Shown: positions 4,776 to 48,127 of the stretch, one piece after another
Layout: every line of letters begins with the position of its first letter
Position numbering within the stretch: the first letter of the stretch is position 1
Source of the DNA: Actinomycetota bacterium
GTDB lineage: Bacteria; Actinomycetota; Thermoleophilia; UBA2241
Direction: 5' to 3'
Length of the DNA stretch: 64,000 nt
Assembly (NCBI GenBank): GCA_003132585.1
Contig: PKYG01000097.1
Location: 1,790 to 65,789 of the forward strand
Program-made: the position numbers and the translations under genes
Notes under the pieces: generated by a model
Seen by the model: only the letters and a program-made list of their open reading frames with translations
What the model was told of the DNA's origin: nothing
The model's database searches: none

Positions 4776-4804
4776 CGGCCGCCGGCGCGCAAGGAGAGTG
4801 AACC

Positions 4805-6537: not shown

Positions 6538-7284
6538 GTGGTCAGCGCCGTGGCCTTCGACCTCGACGGCATGCTCTACGTCGGCGAGCAGGCGCTGCCC
6601 GGCGCGGTCGAGGTCGTGGGCTGGTGCCGGCGACGCGGGTTGCGCGTGCTCTACCTGACCAATTCGACCGTGCGCACGCGCCAGCAGATCGCCGACAAGC
6701 TGGCGGCGATGGGCTTTGCGGCCGCGATAGAGGACGTGTACTGCTGCAGCAACGCGGCGGCGCGTTTCGCGCGGGAGAGCGGGTACTGGCAGGTGTACGT
6801 GATCGGTGCGCGCGCCCTGCGCGCCGAGATGACGGCGCAGGGCGTGCCGCTCACCGAGCAGATCGCGGCCGCCGACGCGCTCGTCGTCGGTCACGACCCC
6901 GAGTGGCACCTCGAGCTGTTCGGCGGATACACGCTGGCGCACGACGCCGCGTTCGTCGCCTGCAACCGCGACATGACCTATCCGGCGGCCGACGGTCGCC
7001 GGCTGCCGGGCTGTGGCGTCGTCGTCGAGCGCGTCGAGCGCGCCGTCGGCCGGCGCGCCAACGTCGTCGTCGGCAAGCCGGCGACGTACATGCTCGAGCT
7101 GATCGAGCGCGATCTCGGCTTCGCCGCGGCCGATGTGCTCGTCGTCGGCGATATGGAGGAGTCCGACATCGCGATGGCGCGCCGCGCCGGGGCGCCGGCG
7201 GCGCTCGTGGCAGGGGAGAGCGCGGTCGAAGTCGAAGGTGCAATGGTGATCGAATCGTTGGCGAAGCTCGAGGAGCTGTTGTGA
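6538..7284 (+). CDS. HAD-superfamily (subfamily IIA, NagD-like) sugar-phosphate phosphatase.
   Basis: N-terminal FDLDGMLY (DxDG) motif. Later VVGKPATYML and LVVGDMEESDIAMARRAGA motifs. Confidence 0.7.
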   Translation: MVSAVAFDLDGMLYVGEQALPGAVEVVGWCRRRGLRVLYLTNSTVRTRQQIADKLAAMGFAAAIEDVYCCSNAAARFARESGYWQVYVIGARALRAEMTAQGVPLTEQIAAADALVVGHDPEWHLELFGGYTLAHDAAFVACNRDMTYPAADGRRLPGCGVVVERVERAVGRRANVVVGKPATYMLELIERDLGFAAADVLVVGDMEESDIAMARRAGAPAALVAGESAVEVEGAMVIESLAKLEELL

Positions 7285-8330: not shown

Positions 8331-8339
8331 AGCTCGCGC

Positions 8340-10544: not shown

Positions 10545-11281
10545 GAGCTCGACTCCGGGAACGCGTCGGCGACGGCTTTGCGGACGAAATCGAGCAGGTC
10601 GCCAGTCTTGTACAGGAAGCCCCTGATGCCGGCAGCCCCGGCCGCGGCCATGTCGCTCACCTTGTCGCCGATGAAGATGCAGTCGGAGGGCGCGGCGGCG
10701 AAGTCGGCCAGCGCCTGCAGAAGGAGTCCCGGTTGCGGCTTGCGCGCGGGGCAGTCGAGCCGGTAGGCGTCGAGCCCCGCCTCCGGATGGTGCGGGCAGT
10801 AGTACACAGCGGCGAGCGCCGCGCCGTCGGCGGCCAGGCGCTCGCCCACCCAGCCCATGAACTGCGCGAACTCCGCCTCCGTGTACAACCCGCGGCCGAT
10901 GCCCGCCTGGTTGGTGACGACGACGACGGTGAAGCCCCAGCGGTCGAGCCAGCGCACGGCCTCGACCGCGCCGGGCATCCAGACGAAGTCCTCGGGGCGG
11001 TGCACGTAGTCTCCGTCGACGTTGAGCACGCCGTCGCGGTCGAGGAAGGCGAGGCGGAGCTGGGCGGCGGCGACTCCGCCGCTGCCGGCGCCGATGGGAC
11101 GCGGATCGGTCGTGTCCCCCGAAACGATGGAGAGAGGAGGAGCCGGGGCACCGGAGCCCGCGGCCGCAGCGGTCACAGCCGCGGGCGCCGCGGCAGATGC
11201 GATCGCGGCAGCCGCAGCCTGAGCTGCCGCGGCCGCCGCGGCCGCGATCGCCTGAGCTGCCGCGCACGGCCGGATCAACAT
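10541..11281 (-). CDS. gmhB: D-glycero-D-manno-heptose 1,7-bisphosphate phosphatase (HAD, GmhB). N-terminal ~70 aa Ala-rich low-complexity stretch of doubtful reality; alt GTG start near 11176.
   Basis: FLDRDGVLN (DxDG), VVVVTNQAGIGRG, CPHHPE...CxCRKPxPG and FIGDKVSDMAAA motifs typical of GmhB. Confidence 0.7.
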   Translation of the reverse strand: MLIRPCAAAQAIAAAAAAAAQAAAAAIASAAAPAAVTAAAAGSGAPAPPLSIVSGDTTDPRPIGAGSGGVAAAQLRLAFLDRDGVLNVDGDYVHRPEDFVWMPGAVEAVRWLDRWGFTVVVVTNQAGIGRGLYTEAEFAQFMGWVGERLAADGAALAAVYYCPHHPEAGLDAYRLDCPARKPQPGLLLQALADFAAAPSDCIFIGDKVSDMAAAGAAGIRGFLYKTGDLLDFVRKAVADAFPESSS

Positions 11282-11844
11282 AGCGAGGCCTCGGCAAGCT
11301 CGCTGAGGATGTGCTCGATCACAATGTGTGCCTCCTGAGTGCGCGCGGTGTCGGTGCTGGGCACGGCGAGGAGCACGTCGCAGACGCCGGCGAGCCGGCC
11401 GCCGCCCTCGCCGGTGAGCGCGATCACCCTGAGGCCGCCGGCGCGCGCCGCGGCGGCGGCCTTGAGCACATTCGCGCTCTCGCCGCTGGTGGAGATCGCG
11501 AGCAGCACGTCGCCGGCGCGGCCGAGCGCCGCGACCTGCCGCGCGAAGACCTCGTCGAAGCCGTGGTCGTTGGCGACCGCCGTGACGATCGACGTGTTGG
11601 TCGTGAGTGCGATCGCCGGCAGGGCGCGGCGCTCGAGCCGGAAGCGGCCGACGAACTCGGCGGCGACGTGCTGGGCGTCGGCGGCGGAGCCGCCGTTGCC
11701 GCAGACCAGCAGCTTGCCGCCGGCCGAGAGCGAGTCGTGGATGAGCGCGTGCGCCCGGCAGATCTCGGCGCTCAGCGCCGAGACTGCCGCCATCACGCGC
11801 TCATGCTCCGCCAGGCGCTTGGCGACGATGCTCACACCGTCCAT
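11275..11844 (-). CDS. gmhA: Phosphoheptose isomerase (SIS domain).
   Basis: MDGVSIVAKRLAEHERVM... LLVCGNGGSAADAQHVAAEF... AISTSGESANVL SIS motifs. True start ATG at 11844. Longer ORF-track extension is an overlap artefact. Confidence 0.8.
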   Translation of the reverse strand: MDGVSIVAKRLAEHERVMAAVSALSAEICRAHALIHDSLSAGGKLLVCGNGGSAADAQHVAAEFVGRFRLERRALPAIALTTNTSIVTAVANDHGFDEVFARQVAALGRAGDVLLAISTSGESANVLKAAAAARAGGLRVIALTGEGGGRLAGVCDVLLAVPSTDTARTQEAHIVIEHILSELAEASLC

Positions 11845-12845
11845 GAGCGCACCCCCTCGTGCGTGAACTTGAAGTTGGCGATCTGCGCGCCGCCGCGCTG
11901 CAGCATGGCCTGCACGGCGAAGCGGCTGCCCGGCTTGCAGATGAAGAACATGAAGCCGCCGCCGCCGGCGCCGGGGATCTTGCCGCCGAGGGCGCCTGCC
12001 TTGCGCGCCTCGGCGTACAGCTCGTCGATCGGCGCCGTACTGATGCCGTCGGCCATCTGCTTCTTCGCCTCCCACGCCTCGTGCAGCAGCTCGCCGAGCG
12101 CCGGCACGCGGCCGAGCAGGAGCGCGTTCTTCATCTCGTAGGCGAGCGCCTTGAGGCGGTCCATGGCGGCGATCGCCGGGGCGTTGCCGGAGCGGTAGTT
12201 CTCCACCTGGCGGTCGATGATGTGCGCCGAGAAGTGGGTGCCGCCGACGTGCGCGAAGAGCAGGCTGTACTCGAGCTCGTAGAGCGTCTCCGGGCGCAGA
12301 CGCAGGGCGTTGACGATCGCGTGACCGTCGGCGAACTCGATGAAGTTGAAACCGCCGAAGGCGGTGGCGTACTGGTCCTGATGGCCACCGCCGATACCCG
12401 CCTCGATGCGCTCGATCTGATAGGCCTTCTCGGCGATCTGGTAGTCGTCGAGCGGCAGGCGCAGGTGCTGCGCCAGCGCCGCGATCAGCGCGACCGTGAC
12501 CGCCGAGGACGAGCCGAGGCCCGAACCGGGCGGCGCGTCGTTGTGGAGCAGCACCTCGAGACCGTCACTGAGACCGTGCTCCCGGCGAAAATGATCGAGC
12601 ACGGTCTTGGCCAGGTCGAGCTGCCCGTCGTAGACGAACTCCTCGTCGACCGAGCAGGCGACGCTGGAGTCGTAGTCGAGGCTCGAGATGCGCAGGTCCG
12701 GGCCGCCGGCGTCGAGCGTGGCGTAGGCGTAGCGGTCGATACTGGCGCTGAGCACGGCGCCGCCACGCTCGTCGCAGTACGGCGACACGTCGGTGCCGCC
12801 GCCGCCGAAGCTGATGCGCAGTGGCGCTCGCGCGCGGATGGTCAC
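11832..12845 (-). CDS. hddA: D-glycero-D-manno-heptose 7-phosphate kinase (GHMP kinase).
   Basis: GHMP motif PPGSGLGSSSAVTVALIAAL. GTG start at 12845 with GGAGGA SD 9 nt upstream. 13-bp overlap with gmhA. Confidence 0.8.
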   Translation of the reverse strand: MTIRARAPLRISFGGGGTDVSPYCDERGGAVLSASIDRYAYATLDAGGPDLRISSLDYDSSVACSVDEEFVYDGQLDLAKTVLDHFRREHGLSDGLEVLLHNDAPPGSGLGSSSAVTVALIAALAQHLRLPLDDYQIAEKAYQIERIEAGIGGGHQDQYATAFGGFNFIEFADGHAIVNALRLRPETLYELEYSLLFAHVGGTHFSAHIIDRQVENYRSGNAPAIAAMDRLKALAYEMKNALLLGRVPALGELLHEAWEAKKQMADGISTAPIDELYAEARKAGALGGKIPGAGGGGFMFFICKPGSRFAVQAMLQRGGAQIANFKFTHEGVRSWTV

Positions 12846-12967: not shown

Positions 12968-14251
12968 TCAGCGAAGGGGCAGTGCGTAGCAGACCGTGTC
13001 GTCGATCTCCCGGCTGTAGTGCCTGAGGTACACACCGCTGCGCGGCATCAGCCGCTTGATGAGTAGAGGTATCGTCCACAGGTCGGTGGGAAAGTGATAG
13101 GCGGAGACGGCAAGGGTGGGTGCGGCGTCCGCGAGCAGGCGCGCCGCACCCAGGAGAGCCTCAGCCTCGGCGCCCTCGATGTCCATCTTGATCAACGACG
13201 GCGCGCGGCGGCCGTCGAAGTACTCGTCGAGGCCGACGACGGGCACGCTCTCACCTCCCAGCTCGTCGTCGCCGAGCAGCCGTGAGCCCGTACCAGCAGT
13301 GCTGAGGAGGCGCGCGCTGCTCATGTGGCGGGCGAGACCTGCCCGTATGGCGGTGATGCGCGCAGGGTCGGTTGCCGCGACATCGGCGAGTTTCGCAAAG
13401 CTCGCCCGGTCCGGCTCGAAGGCGACGTACGAGCGAAACCGCCCTGTGCAGCACACCAGGAACGATCTGAGGGTATCGCCGACGTAGGCACCTCCGTCGA
13501 CCACAACTTCGTCGACGCCGAGCTCATGCACGCTCGAATCGAAGTAGATGGTCGCCGCCGACGTGATCTCGTCCAGGCGCTCCTTGTCAAGGCTGACATA
13601 GAATGCGAGCTTGCCGGCGAACACGCGGCGTGACTCTTCGTCGGCGAGGAGGGCCTGCGCATCCTCGATGGCGGTGCGGTTGGCGGTGTCTGTGGCTGCC
13701 GCCCAGGCGCCCTCGTACTCCCGCGCCCGGAAGATCTCAGGCAGTCGCAGGTTCAAGTAGCCTGCCGGAACGACGGCCTCGCAGCCGAGCGCACGCAGAT
13801 CTTCACAGATCGCGGAGTCGAACATGGTGCTGGCTACGAGGACGGCGTCCCCTGAGTGGGCCGCGGCGACCTCGGTGGGGGAGAGTACCGGCAGGCCGTC
13901 GATGCGGCCGCCCTGCACCGCAGGGTCGCTGTCACCGAAAGCGACGACGCGCGCACCTTGCGCCGTCAGGCCCGCGGCTGCCTGACGGCCCATCCGGCCG
14001 GCTGGATAGACCACCGCAGGACGACGCCCGGCGAGAACCTCGTCAAGCACGCCGTAGCGTCTGTCCAGGGCTGCGCGCCACACTCGCGGGTCGCAGTCAA
14101 GGAGAGCGGCGAGGCGCGAGCCCGTGCTTGGGGCGTGCGCATCGCCGCGCGAGGACGAGCCTTCGTTCACGGCATCGTCGCCGGTGACAGACACTCGCCG
14201 ACGACGGAACACGGGCTCGCACGCCCGACCGACGTATGTCCGATGATGCAT
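12968..14251 (-). CDS. FkbM-family SAM-dependent methyltransferase with an N-terminal Rossmann-like domain (putative sugar O-methyltransferase).
   Basis: C-terminal VVDGGAYVGDTL...IKMDIEGAEAEAL...VSAYHFPTDLW matches FkbM (Methyltransf_21) family. ATG at 14251. Confidence 0.7.
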   Translation of the reverse strand: MHHRTYVGRACEPVFRRRRVSVTGDDAVNEGSSSRGDAHAPSTGSRLAALLDCDPRVWRAALDRRYGVLDEVLAGRRPAVVYPAGRMGRQAAAGLTAQGARVVAFGDSDPAVQGGRIDGLPVLSPTEVAAAHSGDAVLVASTMFDSAICEDLRALGCEAVVPAGYLNLRLPEIFRAREYEGAWAAATDTANRTAIEDAQALLADEESRRVFAGKLAFYVSLDKERLDEITSAATIYFDSSVHELGVDEVVVDGGAYVGDTLRSFLVCCTGRFRSYVAFEPDRASFAKLADVAATDPARITAIRAGLARHMSSARLLSTAGTGSRLLGDDELGGESVPVVGLDEYFDGRRAPSLIKMDIEGAEAEALLGAARLLADAAPTLAVSAYHFPTDLWTIPLLIKRLMPRSGVYLRHYSREIDDTVCYALPLR

Positions 14252-14609: not shown

Positions 14610-15614
14610 GTGAAGGGTCACATCGTCGTGACTGGCTGCGCCGGGTTCATCGGGTCGCACCTGACCGACAGGCTGCTGGCCGACGGGCACACGGTGGTCG
14701 GCATCGACTCGTTCGAGGACTACTACCCGCGGGCGGTCAAAGAGGCGAACCTCGAAAGCGCGCGTGCCAACCCCGCCTTCACGCTGCATGAGGCGAACAT
14801 CCTCGACCTGGCCGCCGAGGCTGCGCCGGGCGGCCTCGAAGCAGGCGGCGCCAAGGGCTCCGCCCTCGCCGCCCTTCTGCGCGGCTGCGCCTGCGTTTAC
14901 CACCTCGCTGCCCAGGTTGGCGTGCGCGCCAGCTGGGGCATCTCGTTCGAGGTCTACACGCGCAACAACGTGCTGGCGACGCAGCAGCTGCTCGAGGAGT
15001 GCGTCGCTGCCGAGGTGCCCAAGGTGATCTACGCCTCATCTTCGTCGGTCTACGGCGACCAGGACGAGTTGCCGCTGCGCGAAGACATGCTGCCGCGGCC
15101 GCGCTCGCCCTACGGGGTGACCAAGCTGGCCGGCGAGCACCTCTGCGGCCTCTACCACGCCAATCACGGGCTCGACACGGTGTCGCTGCGCTTCTTCACC
15201 GTGTACGGCCCGCGGCAGCGCCCGGACATGGCCTTCCACAAGTTCATTAGGGCCACGCTCGAGGGCCGCGAGATCGTGATCTACGGCGACGGCACGCAGA
15301 CGCGCGACTTCACCTACGTGGACGACATCGTCGAGGGGCTGGTGCTGGCGCAGAACGCTCCGGCCGGCGCCGTGATGAACCTCGGCGGCGGCAACCGGGT
15401 GAGCCTTGACGAGGCGATCGCGACGCTCGGCGAGGTCATGGGGGCGGAGCCGAAGCTCGCTCGACAGCATGTGGAGGCAGGAGATGTGAGGGACACTCTG
15501 GCGGACGTGTGGAAGGCGGAGGAGTCGGTGGGCTACCGGCCTACGACAACGCTGGCAGGCGGACTGGCACAGGAATACACATGGCTGGCCGGGGAGAGGA
15601 GCGTGAGCTCATGA
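14610..15614 (+). CDS. NAD-dependent epimerase/dehydratase (nucleotide-sugar 4-epimerase or 4,6-dehydratase-like).
   Basis: [15 protein letters not shown] Rossmann. YASSSSVYG ... [11 protein letters not shown] (YxxxK) catalytic motif. GTG 14610. Confidence 0.8.
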
Positions 15615-16024
15615 CACCGTGGACCTCTGATTTCGAGATCATCGAGAAGGACGGCGCGGAACTGTGCTACGTCATCCGCGCCGAGCTCGCTCCCGACACC
15701 ACCACGTTCGTCACGCCATCCCACTACAAGCAGCAGGTGGGCTTCATCGCCTATCCCGCCGGCGGCGAAGTGCAGCGTCACCTGCACCTGCCCCTCGAGC
15801 GGCACCTCGTGGGCACGTCCGAGGTACTCTTCGTCCGCAAGGGTCGCTGCATTCTGGATGTGTACGACGACGCGAAGGAGCTTGTGGCCAGCCGTGAGGT
15901 CAAGGCCGGCGACCTTGTGCTGATGGTGGGCGGCGGCCATGGGTTCCGCATGCTCGAAGACACGCTCTTCCTCGAGGTGAAGCAGGGCCCATACCTCGAG
16001 TGCGAGGAGAAGGAGCGCTTCTGA
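15611..16024 (+). CDS. Cupin-fold protein (WxcM/FdtA-like sugar 3,4-ketoisomerase candidate).
   Basis: 137 aa, ATG 15611 in ATGA overlap with upstream stop. Small beta-barrel-type composition with His residues (QRHLHLPLERHL...GGGHGF). Confidence 0.55.
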   Translation: MTPWTSDFEIIEKDGAELCYVIRAELAPDTTTFVTPSHYKQQVGFIAYPAGGEVQRHLHLPLERHLVGTSEVLFVRKGRCILDVYDDAKELVASREVKAGDLVLMVGGGHGFRMLEDTLFLEVKQGPYLECEEKERF

Positions 16025-16959
16025 TGCACCCGATTCGTCATGCGAAAGCCCTCGTGCGTGAGCGCCTGACGAATGTCGTCCGTTCGGAGGTCCGGGCGGA
16101 GATGAGAACCACCGCCACTCTTGCCGCGCAGGTGGTCGAGGCACGCCAGGCTGGTGCAAGTCGTCTCGCTTCGACCTATGACCACACCAAGAGTCCCAGC
16201 GACGAGTTCTACGGCGATCTAGCTGAGAGGCTGCGGGGCGCCGGCGTGCATGTACAGACCAAACAGGTCGATGTGGCGCGCTTCTCGGACTGGGCCGAGG
16301 GACACCCCGGCCTCTGGGACTGCTATTACGGGGATCCTGCGACTCGCGTGGAGAAGCTGCTTGAGCACTTCCTCTCCGAGGAATCGACCCGTCTCACTGC
16401 GGGGATGGCCTACATCGATGTCGCGGCAGCCGGTGGTCACTGGGTCTCATGTCTGCGAGGTGCAGGACTGAATGCACTGGCCTTGGACCTGAGCTACCCG
16501 CAGGGAGTGCACGGGTGGCGCATCGGTGCAGATGCCCAGGAGATACCGCTTCCCAGTGGCTCGGTCGATGCCGTGTCCGCTCAGTGCGCGTTTGAATGCT
16601 TCCAGGGCGGTGCCGATGTTGGGTTCATGCGTGAGGCTGCGCGACTACTGCGCCTCGGAGGGAGGCTGGCGATCGTTCCCTTGTACGTGGAAGACGCTCA
16701 CTTCATCGCGACGAGTCCCTACACCATCGTCGAGCCGGGCTGTTTCGACGAGGGTGCAGCGGTGGTGTGGCGTGATGATGAGTACGATGAGCCGTTCGCT
16801 CGACACTACTCGCCGGAAGCTCTGGTCGATAGGCTGGGCGACGCACTCGGTCTGTTCTCGGAAACGAGAGTCGTGCACATGACCAATCTCGAGTCACTCC
16901 GAGAGCGTTGGCCCGGATCACGCCTGTACGCCTACTTCATGTTGGAGTGTCGCAAGTGA
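16024..16959 (+). CDS. Class I SAM-dependent methyltransferase.
   Basis: Methyltransf_11-like: IDVAAAGGHW (motif I-like) ... LLRLGGRLAIV (post-II). ATG 16024 overlaps upstream TGA (TGATG). Confidence 0.65.
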   Translation: MHPIRHAKALVRERLTNVVRSEVRAEMRTTATLAAQVVEARQAGASRLASTYDHTKSPSDEFYGDLAERLRGAGVHVQTKQVDVARFSDWAEGHPGLWDCYYGDPATRVEKLLEHFLSEESTRLTAGMAYIDVAAAGGHWVSCLRGAGLNALALDLSYPQGVHGWRIGADAQEIPLPSGSVDAVSAQCAFECFQGGADVGFMREAARLLRLGGRLAIVPLYVEDAHFIATSPYTIVEPGCFDEGAAVVWRDDEYDEPFARHYSPEALVDRLGDALGLFSETRVVHMTNLESLRERWPGSRLYAYFMLECRK

Positions 16960-16981
16960 CGCCCGACCTGCTGGTGAGCCG

Positions 16982-18097
16982 ATGATCCCGGTCAACGAGC
17001 CGGCGCTCGGCGAGCGCGAGATCGAGCTTGTCGCCGACTGCGTGCGCAGCGGCTGGGTATCGTCCGCAGGCCGCTACCTGGACGAGTTCGAGCGGCGCTG
17101 GGCGGAGTACTGCGACATGAAACACGGGGTCGCCGTTTCCAGCGGTACGGCGGCGCTGGATGTCGCTGTCAGCTGTCTCCGGCTGCAGCCGGGTGACGAG
17201 GTCATCCTGCCGTCGTTCACAATCATCTCGTGCGCCCAGGCGATCACTAAGCACGGTGGGCTGCCGGTGCTGGTGGACTGCGATCCGGACACATGGTGCC
17301 TGGACGTAGACCAAGTCGCCGCACGCATCACGCCGCGCACGCGCGCGGTCATGGCCGTGCACATGTATGGCCACCCCGCCGACATGGACCCCCTGCGCGA
17401 GCTGGCGGACCGTCATGGGTTGGTGCTCATCGAGGATGCGGCCGAGGCGCATGGGGCCGAGTACAAGAGGAAGCGCTGCGGAGGGCTAGGAGACATCTCG
17501 TGCTTCAGCTTCTACGCTAACAAGATCATCACGACGGGCGAGGGCGGCATGATCCTCACGGACCGCGACGACTGGGCGGCCCACGCGCGTGCGTATCGCA
17601 ACCTCTGCTTTGGCAGCGAGCGACGCTTCCACCACGAGGAGCTTGGCGAGAACTACCGTATGACCAACATGCAGGCGGCTCTCGGGGTGGCCCAGCTCGA
17701 CCGGGTGGACGAGATCGTGGCGCACAAGCGCGCCATGGCCGCGGCGTACACTGAGCGCCTGCAGTCGTGCAAGGCTCTGCGGCTCCCCACAGAGCGTGAG
17801 TGGGCGCGCAGCACGTTCTGGATGTACGGCGTGGTGCTCAAGGACGGCGGCCGCGGCGCTGCGGGTCTCGCGGTGGAGTTGGCGAAGCGGCTGCAGGCGC
17901 GCGGTGTGCAAACGCGGCCGTTCTTCCTGGGCATGCACGAGCAGCCGGCCTTCCACCGCATGGGCCTGTTCGCAGGCGAGGAGTACCCGGTCACGGAGAT
18001 GCTCGCCCGCCAAGGCCTGTACCTGCCGTCCGGGACGGCTCTGCAACTAAGCCAGGTGGACCAGGTCGCCGCCGCCGTCAACGAGGTGATGAGATGA
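16982..18097 (+). CDS. DegT/DnrJ/EryC1/StrS-family PLP-dependent sugar aminotransferase.
   Basis: VSSGTAALDVA ... IEDAAEAHGAEY ... FSFYANKIITTGEGGMI (Schiff-base Lys present). Confidence 0.85.
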   Translation: MIPVNEPALGEREIELVADCVRSGWVSSAGRYLDEFERRWAEYCDMKHGVAVSSGTAALDVAVSCLRLQPGDEVILPSFTIISCAQAITKHGGLPVLVDCDPDTWCLDVDQVAARITPRTRAVMAVHMYGHPADMDPLRELADRHGLVLIEDAAEAHGAEYKRKRCGGLGDISCFSFYANKIITTGEGGMILTDRDDWAAHARAYRNLCFGSERRFHHEELGENYRMTNMQAALGVAQLDRVDEIVAHKRAMAAAYTERLQSCKALRLPTEREWARSTFWMYGVVLKDGGRGAAGLAVELAKRLQARGVQTRPFFLGMHEQPAFHRMGLFAGEEYPVTEMLARQGLYLPSGTALQLSQVDQVAAAVNEVMR

Positions 18098-18161
18098 GCG
18101 CGTGGTTTGTCGGAGCCGTGTCTAGTACTGCGACGTTAACCGCAAGCGGGAGTGAGACCAG

Positions 18162-19100
18162 ATGACGCCGCGCATCCTAGTCACGGGCGCGGCGGGCTAC
18201 CTTGGGTCGGTCCTCGTCGGCCGGCTTCTCGACGGCGGCTTCGCGGTTCGCGCGGTCGATGCCCTGATCTATGGGCAAACGAGCCTGCTTCACTACTGCG
18301 GTCAAGCCGGTTTCGAGTTCGTCCGAGGCGACGTCAGAAACGAAGACCTCGTGCAACAGTCGCTTAGTGCTGTGGATGCCATCGTACCGCTGGCTGCACT
18401 CGTCGGTGCGCCCGTGTGCAGTCGCGATCCGTGGTCGGCCCGTGCGGTGAACTTCGAGGCCATCGCCATGCTGGCGCGTTTGCGGTCGCCATCGCAGCTG
18501 ATCGTGTTTCCGAACACCAACAGTATCTACGGGCACACTGCGTCTGGCTCGGTCTGTACCGAAGACTCGCCACTTGCTCCCGTGTCGGTGTACGCGCAGA
18601 CCAAATACGAGGCGGAGCAGACGGTGCTGGGGGCTGGGAACTCGCTCAGTCTGAGGATGGCGACGATGTTCGGTGCCTCGGCACGGATGCGCACCGATCT
18701 GCTCGTCAACGATTTCGTGTACTCCGCGTGCACCGCGCGTTCCATCGTGGTCTTCGACCACACCTTCCGCCGGAACTTCGTACACGTGCGCGATGCTGCG
18801 GACTGCATCACCCACTGCCTTGAGAACGCAGGGGACATGGCGGGTGGTGTCTATAACCTTGGTCTCGATGAGAGCAACCTTACAAAAGGCGAGCTTGCCA
18901 TGCGCGTTGCGAGCCACGTGCCCGGGTGCCATGTGGAGTTGGCGCAGATCGAGACTGACCCAGACAGACGCAGCTACACCATCTCGAGCGCGGCTCTCGC
19001 GGGAAAGGGCTTCGTTGCCAGGCGCTCCTTGGACGCGGGCATCGAGGAGCTCAAGACGGCATTCGAAATGTGGCCCCGCAGTCGCTTCGGCAACGTATGA
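18162..19100 (+). CDS. NAD(P)-dependent epimerase/dehydratase or reductase (extended SDR).
   Basis: ILVTGAAGYLGSVLV Rossmann. SVYAQTKYEAE (YxxxK). ATG 18162. Confidence 0.75.
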   Translation: MTPRILVTGAAGYLGSVLVGRLLDGGFAVRAVDALIYGQTSLLHYCGQAGFEFVRGDVRNEDLVQQSLSAVDAIVPLAALVGAPVCSRDPWSARAVNFEAIAMLARLRSPSQLIVFPNTNSIYGHTASGSVCTEDSPLAPVSVYAQTKYEAEQTVLGAGNSLSLRMATMFGASARMRTDLLVNDFVYSACTARSIVVFDHTFRRNFVHVRDAADCITHCLENAGDMAGGVYNLGLDESNLTKGELAMRVASHVPGCHVELAQIETDPDRRSYTISSAALAGKGFVARRSLDAGIEELKTAFEMWPRSRFGNV

Positions 19101-19936
19101 GCGATGGTACTTCCGGAGGAGGCGGCCGTGACTGGAGTGGGATCGTGAGCGGAATACCGTTCGGACCCGGTTATGCGTCTGCGTACGATGTGCTCTATGG
19201 CGACAAGGACTACGAGGCAGAGGTCGACATCCTCGAGGCTCTCTTTGCGCGGCACGCCTCATGCGCCGTCCATAGCGTGCTGGATCTGGGCTGTGGTACG
19301 GGGTCCCACGCGCTGCCGTTGGCGGGTCGCAGCTACGCTGTGACCGGAGTGGATGTTTCGTCGGACATGTTGGCTCGTGGCCGCAGCAAGCTGTCAGAGA
19401 CGGAGGTGGAGGTCGAGTTCCGCGAAGGCGACATCCGCAGTTACCGAGACGGGCGGGAATACGACGCGGTCATCATGATGTTCGCTGTGCTCGGCTACCA
19501 ACGCACCAACGCGGACGTTCTCGCCGCTCTCTCCACGGTCGCTGCTCATCTCCGCCCAGGTGGTGTGTTCGTTGCCGACTTCTGGTACGGGCCAGCGGTG
19601 CTGTCCTTGGGTCCCGGGAGTCGACAGAAGACGGCCATGCACGGGAACAGGCGGGTGTTCCGCTTCGCAAGCGGTGTTTGCGACGAGTCGCGTCACACCT
19701 GTGTGGTGGCGTACGACGTACTGACCACAGAGGGTGCGCACGTCTTGTCTGAGGCTCACGAGGACCACGAGATGCGGTTCTTCTTTCCCCTGGAGCTTGA
19801 CTTCGCGCTGGCAGATGCGGGCCTCTGTCGGCTAGCGCTCACCGCATACCCGGACGTGGAGAGTCCGCCCAGTGCCGCGGATTGGTGTGCCTGTCTCGTG
19901 GCACAGCTCGCCCCAGGCCGGTCAGCGTCGCGTTGA
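19097..19936 (+). CDS. SAM-dependent methyltransferase resembling TylM1/DesVI-type amino-sugar N,N-dimethyltransferases.
   Basis: YDVLYGDKDYEAEVDILEALF...VLDLGCGTGSHALPLAG...VTGVDVSSDMLA...EGDIRSY layout as in TylM1. ATG 19097 in ATGA overlap. Confidence 0.65.
   Translation: MSDGTSGGGGRDWSGIVSGIPFGPGYASAYDVLYGDKDYEAEVDILEALFARHASCAVHSVLDLGCGTGSHALPLAGRSYAVTGVDVSSDMLARGRSKLSETEVEVEFREGDIRSYRDGREYDAVIMMFAVLGYQRTNADVLAALSTVAAHLRPGGVFVADFWYGPAVLSLGPGSRQKTAMHGNRRVFRFASGVCDESRHTCVVAYDVLTTEGAHVLSEAHEDHEMRFFFPLELDFALADAGLCRLALTAYPDVESPPSAADWCACLVAQLAPGRSASR
19881..19907. repeat. Short diverged direct repeat (copy A) within the 3' end of the N-methyltransferase gene.
   Basis: ATTGGTGTGCCTGTCTCGTGGCACAGC vs CTTGGCGTGCGTGCCTCGTGGCACAGC at 21461..21487. 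Confidence 0.5.
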
Positions 19937-20140
19937 GAATGGACCCGGCCACCGTGCAGACCAGCCCAAGCGTCGCCTCGAGCCAAGGCGACACGACGCA
20001 ACGCCCCGACCAGGAGGATTGGACGCTCGTGATCCGGCCGAAGGGCCGGTTGGTCGACCTTCGCCTCCGCGAGCCCTGGGCGGCGAGGGAGCTCGTGTGG
20101 TTTAATGGGGGCGTCTCACTTGAGCGCGCCGGTCACCGCA

Positions 20141-20311: not shown

Positions 20312-20447
20312 CAAGGCTGAAAGGCAACCTAACCAATCTGGAGCGTGCGACCCGCCAACGAGGTGATGGGCTGCGCGCCAACCAAGTAGGTTGGGCCGGG
20401 GCTCGCGTACAGGTTGACGGGGCTGGCGGGGAGGAGTGAAGGCAACG

Positions 20448-21416
20448 ATGGACCCAGCTGAAGAAAGAATCGAGATCATTCCACGCGATTGGCAGTCGGC
20501 TAGGACCTACCTCTGCGATCCGGGAGGATTCCTGAAGCAAGCTGCTGGGGTGGCGCGCAGGTCCATACTGGCAAGCAGAATGGGACGTCCGCTTCGCGCA
20601 GCAAAGCGGCAATACGGACTGATACGTAGTCTCAAGAGTACGCTGCTGTGGCCGTTTCATGATTTCTGGCTAAGCCCCCCGCCGATGACAGTCACCGTCA
20701 GGCGGTATACGCAGTTCTATAGGGACCTGAGGAGTTACTTTGGGTTGCCGGGTGCAGAGCCTTTTGACATCCGCTGGATGATCCCGCTCATCCACGACAA
20801 GTACTCTGATGCGGGGGATACTGGGCAGTATTTCTATCAAGACATCTGGGCAATGAAGCGCATCATGGAGACCAAAACAAGTTCACACGTAGACGTTGGC
20901 TCGAGAATGATTCTCGTCGGCATGATGAGTGCGATAACGCGTGTGACTTTTGTAGATGTCAGACCACTGCAGTGCAATCTGCCCAATCTGGAGAGCAGAA
21001 TTGGCGATATCACCAATATGCCCTACCCCGATAGCTCGATACCGTCGCTTTCGTGCTTGCATGTAGCTGAACACATCGGTCTAGGTAGGTATGGAGACAA
21101 GCTTGATCCCAAAGGAACCGAGAAGGCAGCTGCGGAGCTTGTTCGGGTTCTCGCGCCAAGTGGGAACCTGTTCTTCTCTGTACCCGTTGGGAACCCGGAG
21201 AGGGTGTATTTCAACTCGCACAGGATGTACTCAGTATCCACCATCATGGCGATGTTCTCAGACCTCGAGCTAGTCGAAGCATCGGGAATTGATGGCGAGA
21301 ACAACTTCATTGAGAATATAGACGTGCGACTGTTCGATGAAGTGAAACACCGTTGGGGTGGCGTGTGTCTGTTGTGGCTTAGGAAGCCTGCTGAAGTAGG
21401 TCGCTCCGATGGATAG
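20448..21416 (+). CDS. DUF268-like (methyltransferase-fold) protein of unknown function. Paralog of 44632..45465.
   Basis: YFYQDIWAMKRIM...HVDVGSR...VTFVDVRP...HVAEHIGLGRYGDKLDP...VLAPSGNLFFSVPVG, shared with the second copy. Confidence 0.55.
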   Translation: MDPAEERIEIIPRDWQSARTYLCDPGGFLKQAAGVARRSILASRMGRPLRAAKRQYGLIRSLKSTLLWPFHDFWLSPPPMTVTVRRYTQFYRDLRSYFGLPGAEPFDIRWMIPLIHDKYSDAGDTGQYFYQDIWAMKRIMETKTSSHVDVGSRMILVGMMSAITRVTFVDVRPLQCNLPNLESRIGDITNMPYPDSSIPSLSCLHVAEHIGLGRYGDKLDPKGTEKAAAELVRVLAPSGNLFFSVPVGNPERVYFNSHRMYSVSTIMAMFSDLELVEASGIDGENNFIENIDVRLFDEVKHRWGGVCLLWLRKPAEVGRSDG

Positions 21417-21797: not shown

Positions 21798-22805
21798 TTG
21801 ACCGAGGACATCGGATCGATCGGGCGCCATGAGGCGCATAGTCTTCTAGTGGGAGTTCGTAACTTGACCACTGACATACGGCAGGTCTACAGGCGTCTCT
21901 ACCTGATACGCCGGGTCGAAGAGACGATCGTCGACATCTACCCGACCGACAAGGTAAAGAGCCCCGTTCATCTGTCTCTTGGTCAGGAAGCCGTCGCCGC
22001 GGGGGTGTGCTCGGCATTGCGCCCCGAAGATGTCGTCTTTGGCTCCTATCGGGGTCACGCGAGCTACCTCGCCAAGGGCGGGAACCTCAATGCCATGATG
22101 GCCGAGCTCTTCGGCAAGGCGACTGGGTGCACCAAAGGCAGGGGCGGCTCGATGCATCTCGCCGACGCACGGGCCGGCGTGATGCCCACCTCGGCAATCG
22201 TCGGCTCGACGATAGCGAATGCGGCAGGATACGCCTTTGGGCTCCGTCGACTCGGTACGGATGCGGTGGTAGTCAGCTTTTTTGGTGACGGTGCCACCGA
22301 AGAAGGGGTGTTCTCGGAGGCGCTCAACTTCGCTGCTCTGAAGCGGCTCCCGGTCCTGTTCGTGTGCGAGAACAACAGCTATGCGATTCACACGCATGTG
22401 AGCCGCCGACAGTCGGCGCAGCGCCTGGTCGAGCGCGTCCGCACCTACGGCATTGCTGCTTCACGCGTCGCAGACGCAGATGTCCTGCGCATCGCCACGG
22501 AGGCGCAGGAGTGTGTGCAGGCATTGCGCGAAGGCCGCGGGCCGCGGTTTCTCGAGTGCGCGACGTATCGACTCAGGGAGCACGTGGGGCCGGGTGAGGA
22601 TTGGGACTTGGGCTACCGCTCGCGTGACGAAGCCCTACCCTGGATCCAGAGTGATCAGGTGACGCGACTTGGAGAAATGCTAGAGCCGCGAGAACGAGCG
22701 GCTCTTGAAGCGGCAGTGGAAGGGGAGATCACTGCCGCCGTGGCTTTTGCAGAGGAGAGCCCCTTCCCTGCCGCCAGCGACCTACAGAACGATGTGTTCG
22801 CATGA
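21798..22805 (+). CDS. ThDP-dependent 2-oxoacid dehydrogenase E1 component alpha-subunit-like (PdhA/AcoA-like).
   Basis: SYRGHAS...GGSMHLADARAG...FFGDGATEEGVFSEALNFAALKRLPVLFVCENNSYA (ThDP GDG-N motif). Start assigned to TTG 21798, uncertain. Confidence 0.75.
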   Translation: MTEDIGSIGRHEAHSLLVGVRNLTTDIRQVYRRLYLIRRVEETIVDIYPTDKVKSPVHLSLGQEAVAAGVCSALRPEDVVFGSYRGHASYLAKGGNLNAMMAELFGKATGCTKGRGGSMHLADARAGVMPTSAIVGSTIANAAGYAFGLRRLGTDAVVVSFFGDGATEEGVFSEALNFAALKRLPVLFVCENNSYAIHTHVSRRQSAQRLVERVRTYGIAASRVADADVLRIATEAQECVQALREGRGPRFLECATYRLREHVGPGEDWDLGYRSRDEALPWIQSDQVTRLGEMLEPRERAALEAAVEGEITAAVAFAEESPFPAASDLQNDVFA

Positions 22806-23854
22806 TTGAAGAACGCTCGCTGAGCCAGATAGACGCGATTCGCGAGGCCCTCTCGCAGGAGATGGAGCGGGATGATCGCGTTCTCGTGCTCGGCTTGGGC
22901 GTGGACGATCCGAAGGCGATACTCGGCAGCACGCGCGGTCTCGCGGAGCGCTTCGGCTCCGAGCGCGTGATGGACACGCCTCTCTCTGAGGATTGTATGA
23001 CCGGCGCATGCATAGGTATGGCGATGGCGGGCTTGCGTCCGGTTCATATCCACATTCGCGTCGATTTCCTCATGCTCGCCATGAACCAGATTGTGAATGT
23101 GGCGGCGAAGTCGATGTACATGTCCGGCGGCCAGCAACCCGTACCACTCGTTGTGCGGGCCATCATCGGGCGCAGCTGGGGTCAGGGCGCACAGCACTCT
23201 CAGGCGTTGCACAGCATGTTCATGCATGTGCCGGGCCTCAAGGTCGTGGCCCCCTCGACCCCGCTCGATGCGAAAGCCGCCCTGACCTACGCCATCCGCG
23301 ACGACAACCCCATCATCTTCATCGAGCACCGCATGCTGCATGGCTTCACGGGCGCGGTCCCAAGTGGCGAGGTCCTGAGAGGACCAGGTAGCTGCCGTGT
23401 TCTCAGGCGTGGGGGAGATCTGACCTTGGTGGGCATCTCCTATATGGTGCCCGAGTGCCTGCGCGCTGCAGAGTGGCTGTCCACCGTGGGCATCGAGTGC
23501 GAGGTCCTCGATCCCGTGTGGCTTAGCCCATTAGATGTCGAGGGCATCAACGCATCGGTCGCGAAGACAGGGCGTCTGCTCGTTGCCGACAACGCCTGGC
23601 TTGAGTGCGGCGCGAGCGCCGAGATTGTGGCGGGGGCCTGCGAGGCTTTGGGCTCGACGCGTCGCTTGGCCGTGGGGCGTGTGGGCTTCGCCGCGACCCC
23701 CTGTCCGACGACGCCTGCCCTCGAGGCGGTCTTCTACGCAAGCGCAGCCTCCATCGCGAGCGAGGCGTTCCGCCTGGTCAAGGGCGAGCTACCAGAGCGA
23801 GGCTGCGATCTCGACATGCCACGCGAGGTCCGGGAGTTCAGGGGGCCTTTCTGA
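22802..23854 (+). CDS. 2-oxoacid dehydrogenase E1 component beta-subunit-like (transketolase-like Pyr and C-terminal domains).
   Basis: MDTPLSEDCMTGACIGMAMAGLRP...GLKVVAPSTPLDAKA. ATG 22802 in ATGA overlap with alpha-subunit stop. Confidence 0.8.
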   Translation: MIEERSLSQIDAIREALSQEMERDDRVLVLGLGVDDPKAILGSTRGLAERFGSERVMDTPLSEDCMTGACIGMAMAGLRPVHIHIRVDFLMLAMNQIVNVAAKSMYMSGGQQPVPLVVRAIIGRSWGQGAQHSQALHSMFMHVPGLKVVAPSTPLDAKAALTYAIRDDNPIIFIEHRMLHGFTGAVPSGEVLRGPGSCRVLRRGGDLTLVGISYMVPECLRAAEWLSTVGIECEVLDPVWLSPLDVEGINASVAKTGRLLVADNAWLECGASAEIVAGACEALGSTRRLAVGRVGFAATPCPTTPALEAVFYASAASIASEAFRLVKGELPERGCDLDMPREVREFRGPF

Positions 23855-24894
23855 TGTCCTGTGAGAGTGCCGTCCGGCTTCTGCTTGAGGACGGAGAACT
23901 GGCTTCCCGTCACGCGGGCCTTCACCGGCTGGAGGGCGCCCGCCTACTCATCACGGGGGCCTCCGGCATCATCGGCCTTAATCTCCTTGCAGCCCTCGCG
24001 GCCGCGAGGGCTGCGGGCGTCTCGATGGACATCTACGCGAGCGTCCAGCGGCCGCCTTCCGACGCGCTCAACCGAGTGGCACATGCGGCGGGCGCCATCG
24101 TGGTGGCGAGCGACCTGTCGACGCCGCAGGGAGTGGAGGACTTGCCGATCGCGGACATCATCGTCCATGCCGCCGGCTCGGGCGACCCTGGCGTGTTCCT
24201 GGCAAGAAAAGCGGAGACCCTGTCGATCGGGGCTTGCGCGACCCTTGCCCTGATCCGCCGCCTTCCTCCTAACGGTCGGCTGTTGTTCCTCAGCTCATCA
24301 GAGGTGTACCAGGGCTTGGACGGCCGAATCGCGGACGAGTCCTTGTGTGGCACCACGACGCCGCAGCATCCCCGTGCTGCATATATCGAAGCCAAACGCG
24401 CGGGCGAGGCCGCCTGTGTGGTGGGCCGCGAAGCCGGACTGACAACCACGGTGGCCCGAATTGCGATCACCTACGGCCCTGGGGCTCGCTTGGGCGACAC
24501 GCGTGTCGTGAACGCGCTGATTGAGCGCTCTCTGCGACAGCCCACCACGCAGCTTCTGGATTCCGGGGCCGCCATCAGGACGTTGATCTACACGCGAGAC
24601 GCTGTGGAACTGCTGTGGCGCATCGCTTTGCAGGGGAGAGAGTCCATCTACAACGTAGCCGGGAAGACAGTGGTGACTGTCAAGGAGATGGCCGAGATCG
24701 TTGCTGGAGCGACACACAGTCGCCTCGAGTCGGGCCGCGGCGATGGTGCAGCGGGAGCTGCACGAGAGGTGCGCCTCGACCTAACACGTGTATTGACGGA
24801 GTTCCCCAAGACGGATTTCCTTGATCTTGAAGGCGGTATCGCGAGAACCGTTGAGTGGTACCGTTCTCTGCTGGAGGTGGATGCGCGGGCATGA
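23854..24894 (+). CDS. NAD(P)-dependent epimerase/dehydratase/reductase (extended SDR).
   Basis: LLITGASGIIGLNLL Rossmann. AAYIEAKRAGE (YxxxK). ATG 23854 overlaps upstream TGA. Confidence 0.75.
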   Translation: MSCESAVRLLLEDGELASRHAGLHRLEGARLLITGASGIIGLNLLAALAAARAAGVSMDIYASVQRPPSDALNRVAHAAGAIVVASDLSTPQGVEDLPIADIIVHAAGSGDPGVFLARKAETLSIGACATLALIRRLPPNGRLLFLSSSEVYQGLDGRIADESLCGTTTPQHPRAAYIEAKRAGEAACVVGREAGLTTTVARIAITYGPGARLGDTRVVNALIERSLRQPTTQLLDSGAAIRTLIYTRDAVELLWRIALQGRESIYNVAGKTVVTVKEMAEIVAGATHSRLESGRGDGAAGAAREVRLDLTRVLTEFPKTDFLDLEGGIARTVEWYRSLLEVDARA

Positions 24895-26078
24895 GGGACT
24901 ACAAGTGGAGACTGCAGGAGAACGTCATCAGTGACGCAGACCTGGAGCTGCTGGTGCACTTCATAAGGACGACCAAGCGTTTCACGCAGTTCACAAAGGT
25001 GCGTGAGTTCGAAGAGGCATTTGCTGCGTGGCAAGGATGCAAATACTGCATCATGGTCAACTCGGGCAGCTCCGCCAATCTCGTGGCCGTGGCCGTGGCC
25101 AAGGAGATGCATGGTTGGTCAAGCGGTGACGAAGTGCTCGTGCCTGCGGTGACCTGGCCAACTACGGTGACGCCGGTCATGCAGCTAGGCCTCAAGCCGG
25201 TCTTCGTCGACGTCAACCTGCGGGATCTTTCGTTCGACTACGATGCGCTGGAGAACGCAGTCACGCGTCAGACCAAGGCGGTCTTTGCACCGCACCTCCT
25301 TGGTTTTCCTGCAGATGTTGCCCGCCTCAAGGCCGTCTGCGCGAGTCACGGGCTGATTCTTCTTGAGGATTGCTGCGAATCTCAGGGTGCGGTGGTCGAA
25401 GGAGCCAAGGTCGGGAATCACGGTTTGGCCGGCACCTTTAGCTTCTACTGGGGCCACCATATGACTACGGTCGAGGGCGGGATGATCTGCACCAACGACG
25501 ACGAGGTCCGGGATCTTGCTCTGCTGAAACGCTCACACGGGCTGGCCCGAGAGCTGCCGCAGGACGCTCACGCTGCCTTGCGTCGGCGCTACTCAGACGT
25601 CGTGTTTGACTTCCTCTTCCTGACCGACGGCTTCAACGTTCGCAACACAGAGTTCAATGCTGTCCTCGGGTTGGCCCAGCTCGCTCGCTTGGACGACTTC
25701 ATCCGCATCCGCAACCGCAACTACACACGGTTCCTGGAGATCTGTACACCTTTTGAAGACGAACTTATTCTTCTTCGCGGTTTGGGCATGAGCGCGTTTG
25801 TGCTGCCTTTCGTCTTTCGCGACGTGGCTCGCAAGACGGCCTTTGAAGCCATTCTTCGGCGAGCGGGCATCGAATCACGCCCCTTGATCAGCGGTAATCT
25901 CCTGCGGCAGCCGGTGTTCTCGACGTTTGGCGAGAGCTGCGACTTCCCCAATGCGGAGTATCTGCATCTGCATGCTTTCTACATCGGGAACAACCAGTTC
26001 GTCGAGGCGGAGCGACTTGCGGCGCTTCAGGAGCTGATGGGAGCATTCTTCGCGCGCCCGACCGGGGTTGCCCGCTAG
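24891..26078 (+). CDS. DegT-family protein with His replacing the PLP-lysine. Candidate PMP-dependent sugar 3-dehydratase (E1/RfbH/ColD-like).
   Basis: MVNSGSSANLVAV ... FSFYWGHHMTTVEGGMI, contrasting with FSFYANK / FSFYPGK in the two bona fide aminotransferases of this window. ATG 24891 in ATGA overlap. Confidence 0.65.
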   Translation: MRDYKWRLQENVISDADLELLVHFIRTTKRFTQFTKVREFEEAFAAWQGCKYCIMVNSGSSANLVAVAVAKEMHGWSSGDEVLVPAVTWPTTVTPVMQLGLKPVFVDVNLRDLSFDYDALENAVTRQTKAVFAPHLLGFPADVARLKAVCASHGLILLEDCCESQGAVVEGAKVGNHGLAGTFSFYWGHHMTTVEGGMICTNDDEVRDLALLKRSHGLARELPQDAHAALRRRYSDVVFDFLFLTDGFNVRNTEFNAVLGLAQLARLDDFIRIRNRNYTRFLEICTPFEDELILLRGLGMSAFVLPFVFRDVARKTAFEAILRRAGIESRPLISGNLLRQPVFSTFGESCDFPNAEYLHLHAFYIGNNQFVEAERLAALQELMGAFFARPTGVAR

Positions 26079-48126: not shown

Positions 48127-48127
48127 C

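Follow-up and report, generated by a model that had tools for sequence, protein, structure and literature searches.

The pathways to dTDP-mycaminose and dTDP-desosamine (Tyl1a/TylB/TylM1 and DesVI; dTDP, deoxythymidine diphosphate) combine a small cupin, a DegT aminotransferase and an N-methyltransferase acting on a nucleotide-4-keto sugar. The same kinds of enzyme, including a homologous N-methyltransferase, are encoded in an operon of six genes, g1 to g6, at positions 14610-19936 of a 64,000-nucleotide (nt) stretch of contig PKYG01000097.1 from an Actinomycetota bacterium (Thermoleophilia), here called the window; in relatives of this operon a 4,6-dehydratase is adjacent. As judged from homology and gene neighbourhood, on which all functions proposed here are based, g1-g6 most likely make a guanosine diphosphate (GDP)-activated, N-methylated amino sugar for a surface glycan. 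The operon differs from the mycaminose and desosamine pathways in that GDP is indicated as the nucleotide, the cupin has no detectable relation by sequence to Tyl1a/FdtA, and there is no 4,6-dehydratase among the six genes. Its product would enter a Wzm/Wzt-exported surface glycan, whereas theirs are placed onto a macrolide.

Two further systems use the GDP chemistry that is proposed for the operon. In the GDP-perosamine pathway (Gmd plus Per/RfbE) of Caulobacter, V. cholerae O1 and E. coli O157, Per is the closest relative of g4, and the likeness extends to the presence of Gmd in related loci and to an O-antigen-like, ABC-transporter-dependent cluster. Perosamine synthesis, however, does without a cupin, and N-acylation rather than N-methylation is the fate of its amine, whereas here a cupin is nearly always found 5' of the aminotransferase and a TylM1-like methyltransferase often 3'. 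The capsular heptose modification of Campylobacter jejuni employs Cj1427, a GDP-heptose C4-dehydrogenase, the cupin epimerase Cj1430 and the reductase Cj1428, together with hddA/gmhA/hddC. Like that system, the window has a Cj1427 homolog close to GDP-heptose genes and a cupin that is expected to act on a GDP-4-keto sugar. The differences are that the keto sugar is proposed here to be transaminated and N-methylated rather than reduced, that g2 is not of the RmlC/Cj1430 family, and that hddC is not in the window.

The synthesis of GDP-mycosamine for polyene macrolides (AmphDIII/AmphDII) is similar: the product of Gmd is proposed to undergo 3,4-ketoisomerisation, and a perosamine-synthase-like enzyme aminates it. 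According to a review, no 3,4-ketoisomerase for GDP-4-keto-6-deoxymannose has been identified, the isomerisation is believed to occur spontaneously, and Gmd and the synthase by themselves have not yielded GDP-mycosamine in vitro (PMC8944477). The present operon has a dedicated cupin gene, of candidate activity only, and in view of the missing ketoisomerase this cupin is a testable candidate for the role. The WbuC cupins (TIGR04366) of O-antigen clusters are, like g2, small proteins with an HxH...H pattern that are encoded in glycan clusters, but g2 scores below the cutoff of that family (27.6 versus 42 bits). In septacidin L-heptosamine synthesis (SepI/SepJ/SepA/SepG), oxidation of a heptose at C4, epimerisation and transamination lead to a 4-amino-4-deoxy-heptose, as proposed here; that pathway differs in using a GMC oxidase dependent on flavin adenine dinucleotide and TIM-barrel plus VOC epimerases, in acting on a heptose already attached to adenine, and in having no N-methylation (PMC9978623). 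Our literature searches returned nothing relevant on natural dimethylamino sugars in O-antigens, and no description of the perosamine synthase, cupin and methyltransferase combination, that is, of a GDP-type module. The enzyme families are individually known, with the exception of the cupin.

Layout and conservation of the operon

The original prediction placed six genes on the plus strand of this region, and all of them were found there:

14610-15614, plus strand: g1, 334 amino acids (aa), extended short-chain dehydrogenase/reductase (SDR), UDP-glucuronate 4-epimerase-like (UDP, uridine diphosphate)
15611-16024, plus strand: g2, 137 aa, small cupin, distant relative of WbuC
16024-16959, plus strand: g3, 311 aa, divergent class I methyltransferase-like protein
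16982-18097, plus strand: g4, 371 aa, DegT aminotransferase dependent on pyridoxal phosphate (PLP), GDP-perosamine-synthase-like
18162-19100, plus strand: g5, 312 aa, extended SDR, Cj1427-like
19097-19936, plus strand: g6, 279 aa, N-methyltransferase dependent on S-adenosylmethionine (SAM), TylM1/DesVI type

The genes had been described as translationally coupled throughout. This holds for three of the five junctions, which overlap in the sequence as read (ATGA at g1/g2 and at g5/g6, TGATG at g2/g3); the remaining two have gaps of 22 nt (g3/g4) and 64 nt (g4/g5). Already-recorded called proteins are identical in sequence to the products of g1, g2, g5 and g6. All six genes recur in the same order, at approximately 70-92% amino-acid identity, in the nearest matching genome, the independent metagenome-assembled genome (MAG) of an uncultured member of the Thermoleophilia (L001, the syntenic MAG in what follows), and in metagenome contigs, which argues that the arrangement is not due to chance. 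In the syntenic MAG g5 overlaps g4. Scanning 14.2-21.9 kb for promoters and terminators yielded no useful information.

Part of the operon is conserved well outside this lineage. Eighty metagenome loci (L033-L112) were fetched with the cupin as bait and their neighbouring genes were scored; many of these loci are short, and a missing neighbour is often the end of a contig. An aminotransferase similar to g4 lies directly 3' of the cupin in 49 of the 62 informative loci, and is itself directly followed by a g6-like methyltransferase in 19 of 28. Identity to the other loci is 62-70% for the cupin and 55-67% for the aminotransferase. The same module is present in Bradyrhizobium, in other proteobacterial MAGs and in Anaerolineae, and the order cupin, aminotransferase, N-methyltransferase is kept across phyla. 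Wzm/Wzt genes are common neighbours, the sampled contexts being mostly Wzm/Wzt glycan clusters of Bacteria, with one Methanomassiliicoccales contig included. The cupin, the Per-like aminotransferase and the TylM1-like methyltransferase constitute a conserved functional module. Searches with the cupin and with the methyltransferase returned 2673 and 2135 homologs, respectively, and with most sampled contexts in glycan clusters, the earlier description of such a combination as unusual outside secondary metabolism was overstated.

In 12 of the 80 loci a GDP-mannose 4,6-dehydratase (Gmd; PF16363, about 500 bits) directly follows the methyltransferase or lies within a few kb of it. Module and Gmd together make a four-gene cassette in many organisms, which would apply the logic of mycaminose synthesis to a GDP sugar. 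The predicted succession of dehydratase, isomerase, aminotransferase and dimethyltransferase is therefore seen in these related loci, where the module stands beside a 4,6-dehydratase, but not in the operon itself, which has none. SDRs similar to g1 (>55% identity) occur in 9 of the 80 loci, and none of the 80 has both Gmd and a g1-like SDR. Such exclusion is the pattern that alternative entry enzymes would give; it conflicts with the likeness of g1 to an ordinary UDP-glucuronate 4-epimerase.

Functional assignment of the gene products

The DegT assignment of g4 is borne out by PF01041 (383 bits) and by the Schiff-base lysine motif FSFYANK. The best relative in the PDB is the perosamine synthase of C. 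crescentus (3bn1/3dr4/3dr7; E 2.3e-92, residues 3-370), and matches to ArnB are far weaker (approximately 1e-49 to 1e-51). No equivalog cutoff is reached among the NCBIfam models, the best being LegC with 329 bits against a cutoff of 420. By homology, then, g4 is a DegT aminotransferase, and among solved structures GDP-perosamine synthase is by far its nearest relative. The near-obligatory cupin beside g4-like enzymes suggests that their substrate is not the unmodified product of Gmd. A legionaminic or pseudaminic acid pathway, to which NCBIfam matches to LegB, LegC and PseC might point, was rejected: none of these matches reaches its cutoff, no NeuB-type synthase is encoded in the window, and g4 is matched far better by Per.

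The g6 product has the features of a class I SAM-dependent methyltransferase (Methyltransf_25, 76.7 bits), and its translation contains the expected motifs YDVLYG and LDLGCGTG, the latter being the GxGxG motif. A single-sequence phmmer search matched DesVI (3bxo, 5.7e-24, residues 25-243) and TylM1 (3pfg, 3e-21), and a profile of 24 g6-family members extended both matches to full length (DesVI, E 1.9e-33, positions 6-232 of 257; TylM1, 2e-28, positions 5-230). These two enzymes are the only ones that g6-family members match over the full length, including the C-terminal substrate region, at an identity for g6 of only about 30%. The other characterised neighbours of g6 are also amine N-methyltransferases, namely CalS10, a second N-methyltransferase in the PDB, CypM and the daptide methyltransferase. 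As predicted, then, g6 is related over its full length to DesVI and TylM1, and it groups with such sugar N,N-dimethyltransferases rather than with non-sugar methyltransferases; gene context suggests that its substrate is a GDP-amino sugar. The other methyltransferase-like protein, g3, has weak similarity to Methyltransf_11 (33.5 bits) and to the DVU_1556 family (38.5 bits, below cutoff), and no relative in the PDB. Its occurrence is limited to the close lineage (L001, L033-L041), where its gene invariably stands between those of cupin and aminotransferase, and it possibly carries out an O-methylation.

Both SDRs of the operon belong to the extended class (PF01370; 194 bits for g1). The best PDB relative of g1 is the UDP-glucuronate 4-epimerase of B. 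cereus, BcUGAepi (6zl6; E 7.9e-78, 47% identity over 304 aligned residues), followed by MoeE5 (E 2e-68). The segments SSSSVYG and YGVTK and a 12-residue motif with the equivalent of Arg185 align with BcUGAepi, and YxxxK and the Ser/Thr carboxylate grip are kept; Arg185 has a role in holding the carboxylate (PMC12338863). All of the expected homology and motifs being present, g1 is assigned as a UDP-glucuronate 4-epimerase-like protein. Relatives of at least 57% identity lie directly upstream of the cupin in L032 (the Methanomassiliicoccales contig), L038, L040, L044, L050 and L114; a g1-like SDR directly 5' of the cupin is seen in the close lineage and in three more distant loci, among them the Methanomassiliicoccales contig (57% identity).

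The second SDR, g5, matches PDB entries 6vo6/6vo8 over residues 1-311 (E 2.5e-88, 299 bits, 45% identity), and the next PDB match reaches only 94 bits. The 6vo6 chain is a 313-aa C. jejuni protein whose gene lies between a Cj1428-like SDR and hddA/gmhA/hddC, according to its homolog cluster and the synteny of the locus, and this position identifies it as Cj1427. By this alignment g5 is a specific, full-length relative of Cj1427. Genes for a GHMP kinase, an SIS protein or an NTP-transferase adjoin Cj1427 homologs in Nitrospirae and Bacillota, and GDP-heptose synthesis genes accompany the family in the three loci sampled (C. jejuni, Nitrospirae and Bacillota). Among the loci with the cupin module, g5 is confined to the close lineage.

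In a dTDP-type scheme one of these SDRs would serve as the 4,6-dehydratase. The catalytic site reads ASSSSVYG in g1 (SSSS at the motif) and PNTNSIYG in g5 (NTNS), whereas 4,6-dehydratases have Thr-Asp/Glu-Glu next to YxxxK; the scores are far below cutoff for RmlB (TIGR01181, 120 bits for g1 and 62 for g5, cutoff 365) and for Gmd (51 bits for g1, cutoff 415). By these motifs and scores, neither SDR of the operon is a 4,6-dehydratase.

The cupin g2 belongs to an uncharacterised family. It has no match in Pfam, scans at E values up to 10 giving none that was usable, and no sequence relative in the PDB, whether searched as a single sequence or as a family profile. Its sole detectable sequence relation is to the NCBIfam model WbuC (TIGR04366; 27.6 bits, cutoff 42), which was also matched, below cutoff, by all 24 sampled members of the cupin family (best E 6e-9); in the literature found, WbuC is without demonstrated function and the name serves as an annotation label only. 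The family is highly conserved, with 65-70% identity between the cupins of the source actinobacterium, of Anaerolineae and of a Methanomassiliicoccales MAG; H57, H59 and H110 do not vary, and E63 hardly does.

An AlphaFold model of g2 has a cupin fold (pLDDT 80). Foldseek searches with this model gave weak matches (E approximately 1e-4, template modelling [TM] scores of 0.5-0.59) to RmlC, Cj1430/MlghB, an FdtD domain and unrelated metallo-cupins. Cj1430 and MlghB are GDP-heptose 3,5-epimerases. The similarity to the RmlC/Cj1430 type is one of fold only, and weak (TM 0.53-0.59), while the score to the FdtD domain (4zu4, TM about 0.5) is not above that to the RmlC-type epimerases. The predicted fold fits an isomerase or epimerase of nucleoside diphosphate (NDP)-4-keto sugars without telling which, and we propose one or the other of these functions for g2.

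The cupin had been said to resemble the FdtA/WxcM ketoisomerases. It does not belong to the FdtA family (PF05523), and Pfam and PDB searches detected no sequence relation to FdtA, WxcM or Tyl1a. An hhalign comparison with an approximate FdtA sequence set H57/H59/E63 in register with HAH...E (probability 4%, E 0.011); this is not significant and we do not count it as evidence. Nor is g2 a member of the RmlC/Cj1430 family, as PF00908 is absent and hhalign against C. jejuni Cj1430 aligned 14 columns at E 0.26. FdtA is similar in length to g2 (137 aa) and also keeps the HxH(x)3E...H pattern. By analogy, the size of g2, this pattern and the gene order cupin, aminotransferase, methyltransferase slightly favour a ketoisomerase, which makes that role plausible.

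Proposed pathway and competing entry routes

We estimate a chance of about three in four that a GDP-keto sugar passes through the cupin, the aminotransferase and the N-methyltransferase. That this sugar enters as a heptose by way of g5 is a tentative addition, to which we give somewhat under even odds. In the proposed scheme g5, as an SDR of the Cj1427 type, would oxidise C4 to yield a GDP-4-keto-heptose. This keto sugar would be rearranged by the cupin g2, acting either as a 3,4-ketoisomerase or as a C3/C5 epimerase; g4 would transaminate it with glutamate as donor, and g6 would methylate the new amine once or twice. A further methyl group would probably be added by g3, and g1 would most likely supply UDP-galacturonate (UDP-GalA) to the same glycan. 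If g5 acts like Cj1427, the 2-oxoglutarate released by g4 could re-oxidise the NADH bound to g5, a coupling that we only infer. Which sugar is the substrate, what the cupin does, which carbon bears the amine and how many methyl groups are added are likewise inferred, whereas the family assignments, the order of the genes and the conservation of the cupin/aminotransferase/methyltransferase module are shown by the data.

Genes that bear on the entry of the sugar are found divergently upstream of the operon, together with a methyltransferase gene, and at the end of the window:

10541-11281, minus strand: gmhB (TIGR00213, 148.4 bits, cutoff 149.6)
11275-12075, minus strand: gmhA (TIGR00441, 209.8 bits, cutoff 209.45)
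11832-12845, minus strand: hddA-like heptose-7-phosphate kinase (NCBIfam HddA, 265 bits, full length)
12968-14251, minus strand: FkbM-family methyltransferase (PF05050, 48 bits), first gene of the divergent heptose operon, sharing a 358-nt intergenic region with g1
62613-63581, plus strand: fcl, GDP-L-fucose synthase (NF047922, 427 bits)
~63598 to the window end (63999), plus strand: 5' part of gmd (TIGR01472, 229 bits for 134 residues)

The gmhA open reading frame (ORF) as listed overlaps hddA by approximately 240 nt, and its SIS domain begins at residue 93 or later; the true start is probably internal, near 11,800.

Heptose entry is favoured by the divergent gmhA, hddA and gmhB genes upstream of the operon, and by the position of g5 between g4 and g6, with an overlap to g6 here and to g4 in the syntenic MAG. 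Several observations weigh against it. In the syntenic MAG no heptose genes appear over 10 kb on either side (5' of the cupin and 3' of g6), and gmd/fcl lie 6 kb upstream of the operon. The identity of g5 to Cj1427 is 45%, compared with 65-69% for many environmental homologs. A guanylyltransferase (HddC or ManC) is missing from the window, and a regular-expression search found no nucleotidyltransferase motif in any plausible window gene. Wherever g5 occurs it is accompanied by a second sugar block, which encodes E1 alpha/beta proteins, an SDR and a 3-dehydrase; g5 might feed this block instead, as is suggested by the Nitrospirae locus L117, where a Cj1427 homolog lies beside E1 alpha/beta and hddA/hddC/gmhA with no aminotransferase nearby. 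The part given to the cupin is only a proposed one, and a supply of UDP-GalA alone leaves the tight, recurrent linkage of g1 to the cupin unexplained. Finally, outside the close lineage the module pairs with Gmd, so that its usual substrate is probably GDP-4-keto-6-deoxymannose.

This last point leads to a possible, though in our view somewhat less likely, alternative for the operon itself. Gmd would turn GDP-mannose into GDP-4-keto-6-deoxy-D-mannose, from which g2, g4 and g6 would produce an N-methyl or N,N-dimethyl amino-dideoxyhexose, of the perosamine type if the amine is at C4 and of the mycosamine type if it is at C3; g5 and the heptose genes would then serve another sugar, such as that of the E1 alpha/beta branched-chain pathway. 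The 12 loci with Gmd after or near the N-methyltransferase, the high identity of cupin and aminotransferase to those of other loci, the gmd and fcl genes of the window and of the syntenic MAG, and the arrangement in L117 all agree with such a route. The gmd gene of the window, however, is 44 kb from the operon and paired with fcl, which along with a GT10 gene suggests fucose synthesis, and the placement of g5 between g4 and g6, with overlaps, is hard to explain if g5 is irrelevant. Entry through g1 is improbable. Here the UDP-glucuronate-epimerase-like SDR would release a 4-keto-hexuronate, or a 4-keto-pentose after decarboxylation, to be converted by cupin and g4 into an amino-uronic acid or amino-pentose that g6 methylates. 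The recurrence of the order g1, cupin, aminotransferase in distant loci, including the Methanomassiliicoccales contig, and the mutual exclusion of g1-like SDRs (9 loci) and Gmd (12 loci) would follow from it. Yet g1 keeps the BcUGAepi residues for an epimerase that neither releases nor decarboxylates its intermediate (the Arg185 equivalent and the Ser/Thr grip), g4 is far closer to GDP-perosamine synthase than to ArnB, and cupin and aminotransferase would have to switch between UDP and GDP substrates while remaining 65-70% identical.

A model along the lines of the original prediction is a mycaminose-, desosamine- or ravidosamine-type route from dTDP-glucose, with RmlA/RmlB encoded elsewhere, an SDR as dehydratase and the cupin as an FdtA-like 3,4-ketoisomerase. 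The homology of g6 to dTDP-sugar N,N-dimethyltransferases and a gene order that mirrors Tyl1a/TylB/TylM1 accord with this, but the evidence is for GDP chemistry: g4 resembles GDP-perosamine synthase, the dehydratase beside the module is Gmd and not RmlB, and the window contains gmd/fcl and GDP-heptose genes, with neither RmlA nor RmlB among the genes scanned. Both SDRs lack the dehydratase motif and have an epimerase and a C4-dehydrogenase as nearest relatives, and the cupin gives no FdtA (PF05523) signal. We regard a dTDP route as highly improbable; that reading was right in its logic and wrong on the nucleotide and on the SDRs. It is equally hard to believe that the six genes do not form one pathway at all, with g6 methylating a non-sugar amine or a residue of the finished glycan and the neighbourhood reflecting co-expression of unrelated glycan functions. 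The best NCBIfam match of g6 is indeed to the daptide (peptide-amine) methyltransferase, at 71 bits and below cutoff, its top phmmer match in the PDB is an uncharacterised Pyrococcus methyltransferase, and g1 probably belongs to a different sugar. A methyltransferase nevertheless follows the aminotransferase in two-thirds of the informative loci across phyla, and g6 is matched at full length by DesVI and TylM1 only.

Within the proposed scheme of a GDP-keto sugar that is rearranged, aminated and N-methylated, a more specific conjecture, which we consider rather doubtful, is that the g2 family is the first dedicated 3,4-ketoisomerase for GDP-4-keto sugars (GDP-4-keto-6-deoxymannose and, here, GDP-4-keto-heptose), a class of enzyme for which the search in mycosamine biosynthesis has had no success. 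It would lead to mycosamine-type GDP-3-amino sugars that a TylM1-like enzyme N,N-dimethylates, and the product in this organism would be a dimethylamino-deoxy-heptose. We know of no described glycan that contains such a sugar.

The surrounding glycan cluster and significance of the module

As the original prediction held, the operon is embedded in a glycan export cluster. In addition to Wzm/Wzt, the cluster encodes about 12 glycosyltransferases, two Wzy_C-like proteins, a Wzz/kinase-like protein and two Bac_transf initiating transferases. The features closest to the operon on its 3' side are:

19938-20097, plus strand: 5' remnant of wzm (in tblastn, 66 codons match the N-terminus of the Wzm encoded next after g6 in MAG L001, at 77% identity)
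21798-26078, plus strand: second sugar block, with E1 alpha (21798-22805) and E1 beta (22802-23854) of the pyruvate dehydrogenase type, a UXS/RmlB-like SDR (~23905-24894) and an RfbH/ColD-like PLP 3-dehydrase (24855-26078)
26068-26982, plus strand: Wzm (PF01061), ABC exporter of the glycan
26922-28268, plus strand: Wzt (PF00005, Wzt_C), ABC exporter of the glycan

The functional Wzm, at 26068, comes from another copy and shares only 49% identity with the remnant. The remnant marks an ancestral order g1-g6-wzm-wzt that was later altered by insertion or rearrangement; together with the distinct Wzm copy, it indicates that the change involved approximately 6 kb between g6 and the exporter genes (20.1-26.0 kb, where GC content is as low as 0.58). 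The E1 alpha/beta block probably makes a 3-deoxy, two-carbon-branched (yersiniose-like) sugar. GC content ranges from 0.58 to 0.72 over the window, being 0.58-0.65 over 18000-52000 and 0.67-0.72 in the flanks, which fits horizontal acquisition or mosaic assembly of the low-GC glycan cluster.

There are at least 7 methyltransferase genes in the cluster (12968-14251, 16024, 19097, 20436-21416, 43633-44412, 44587-45465 and 47924-49057), including two DUF268-like paralogs (36% identity) and one of the FkbM type, and the glycan is probably heavily methylated. An IS21 element, with istB at 35161-35931 and a helix-turn-helix ORF at 36127-37152 taken as istA, both on the minus strand, is flanked by paralogous pairs of Wzy_C-like and GT2 genes (31513-34184 and 37364-39804; 42% and 36% amino-acid identity). 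At 2083-10544, on the plus strand, are genes for an acetolactate-synthase-like thiamine pyrophosphate enzyme, an SDR, an AroB-related sugar-phosphate cyclase (TIGR04425, 357 bits, cutoff 400) and a HAD phosphatase, followed by a GT2 gene and one for a 734-aa protein that begins with a GtrA domain; the group has the look of a module for a cyclitol or an unusual sugar, linked to a glycosylation step at the membrane. A radical-SAM/SPASM protein (52565-53539, plus strand) is encoded between glycosyltransferases and a third DegT aminotransferase (54736-55866), and genes for a GFO/IDH/MocA oxidoreductase and a hexapeptide acyltransferase lie 3' of the latter. This region is reminiscent of modules for diamino sugars or acetamido sugars, with a radical-SAM step that is unusual.

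If the proposed scheme is true, the "antibiotic-type" scheme, in which a keto sugar is passed from a cupin to an aminotransferase and an N-methyltransferase, also has a GDP-sugar version, which in the cupin contexts sampled belongs mostly to surface-glycan clusters of Actinomycetota, Chloroflexota and Proteobacteria, and to a Methanomassiliicoccales contig. One of its steps, without known enzymology, would fall to a highly conserved, unannotated cupin of 137 aa that is nearly always accompanied by a perosamine-synthase-like aminotransferase. The Cj1427-type dehydrogenase and the heptose genes would further predict an amino-heptose new to cell-envelope glycans, and a coupling of cofactors in which the 2-oxoglutarate of the transaminase recycles the dehydrogenase.

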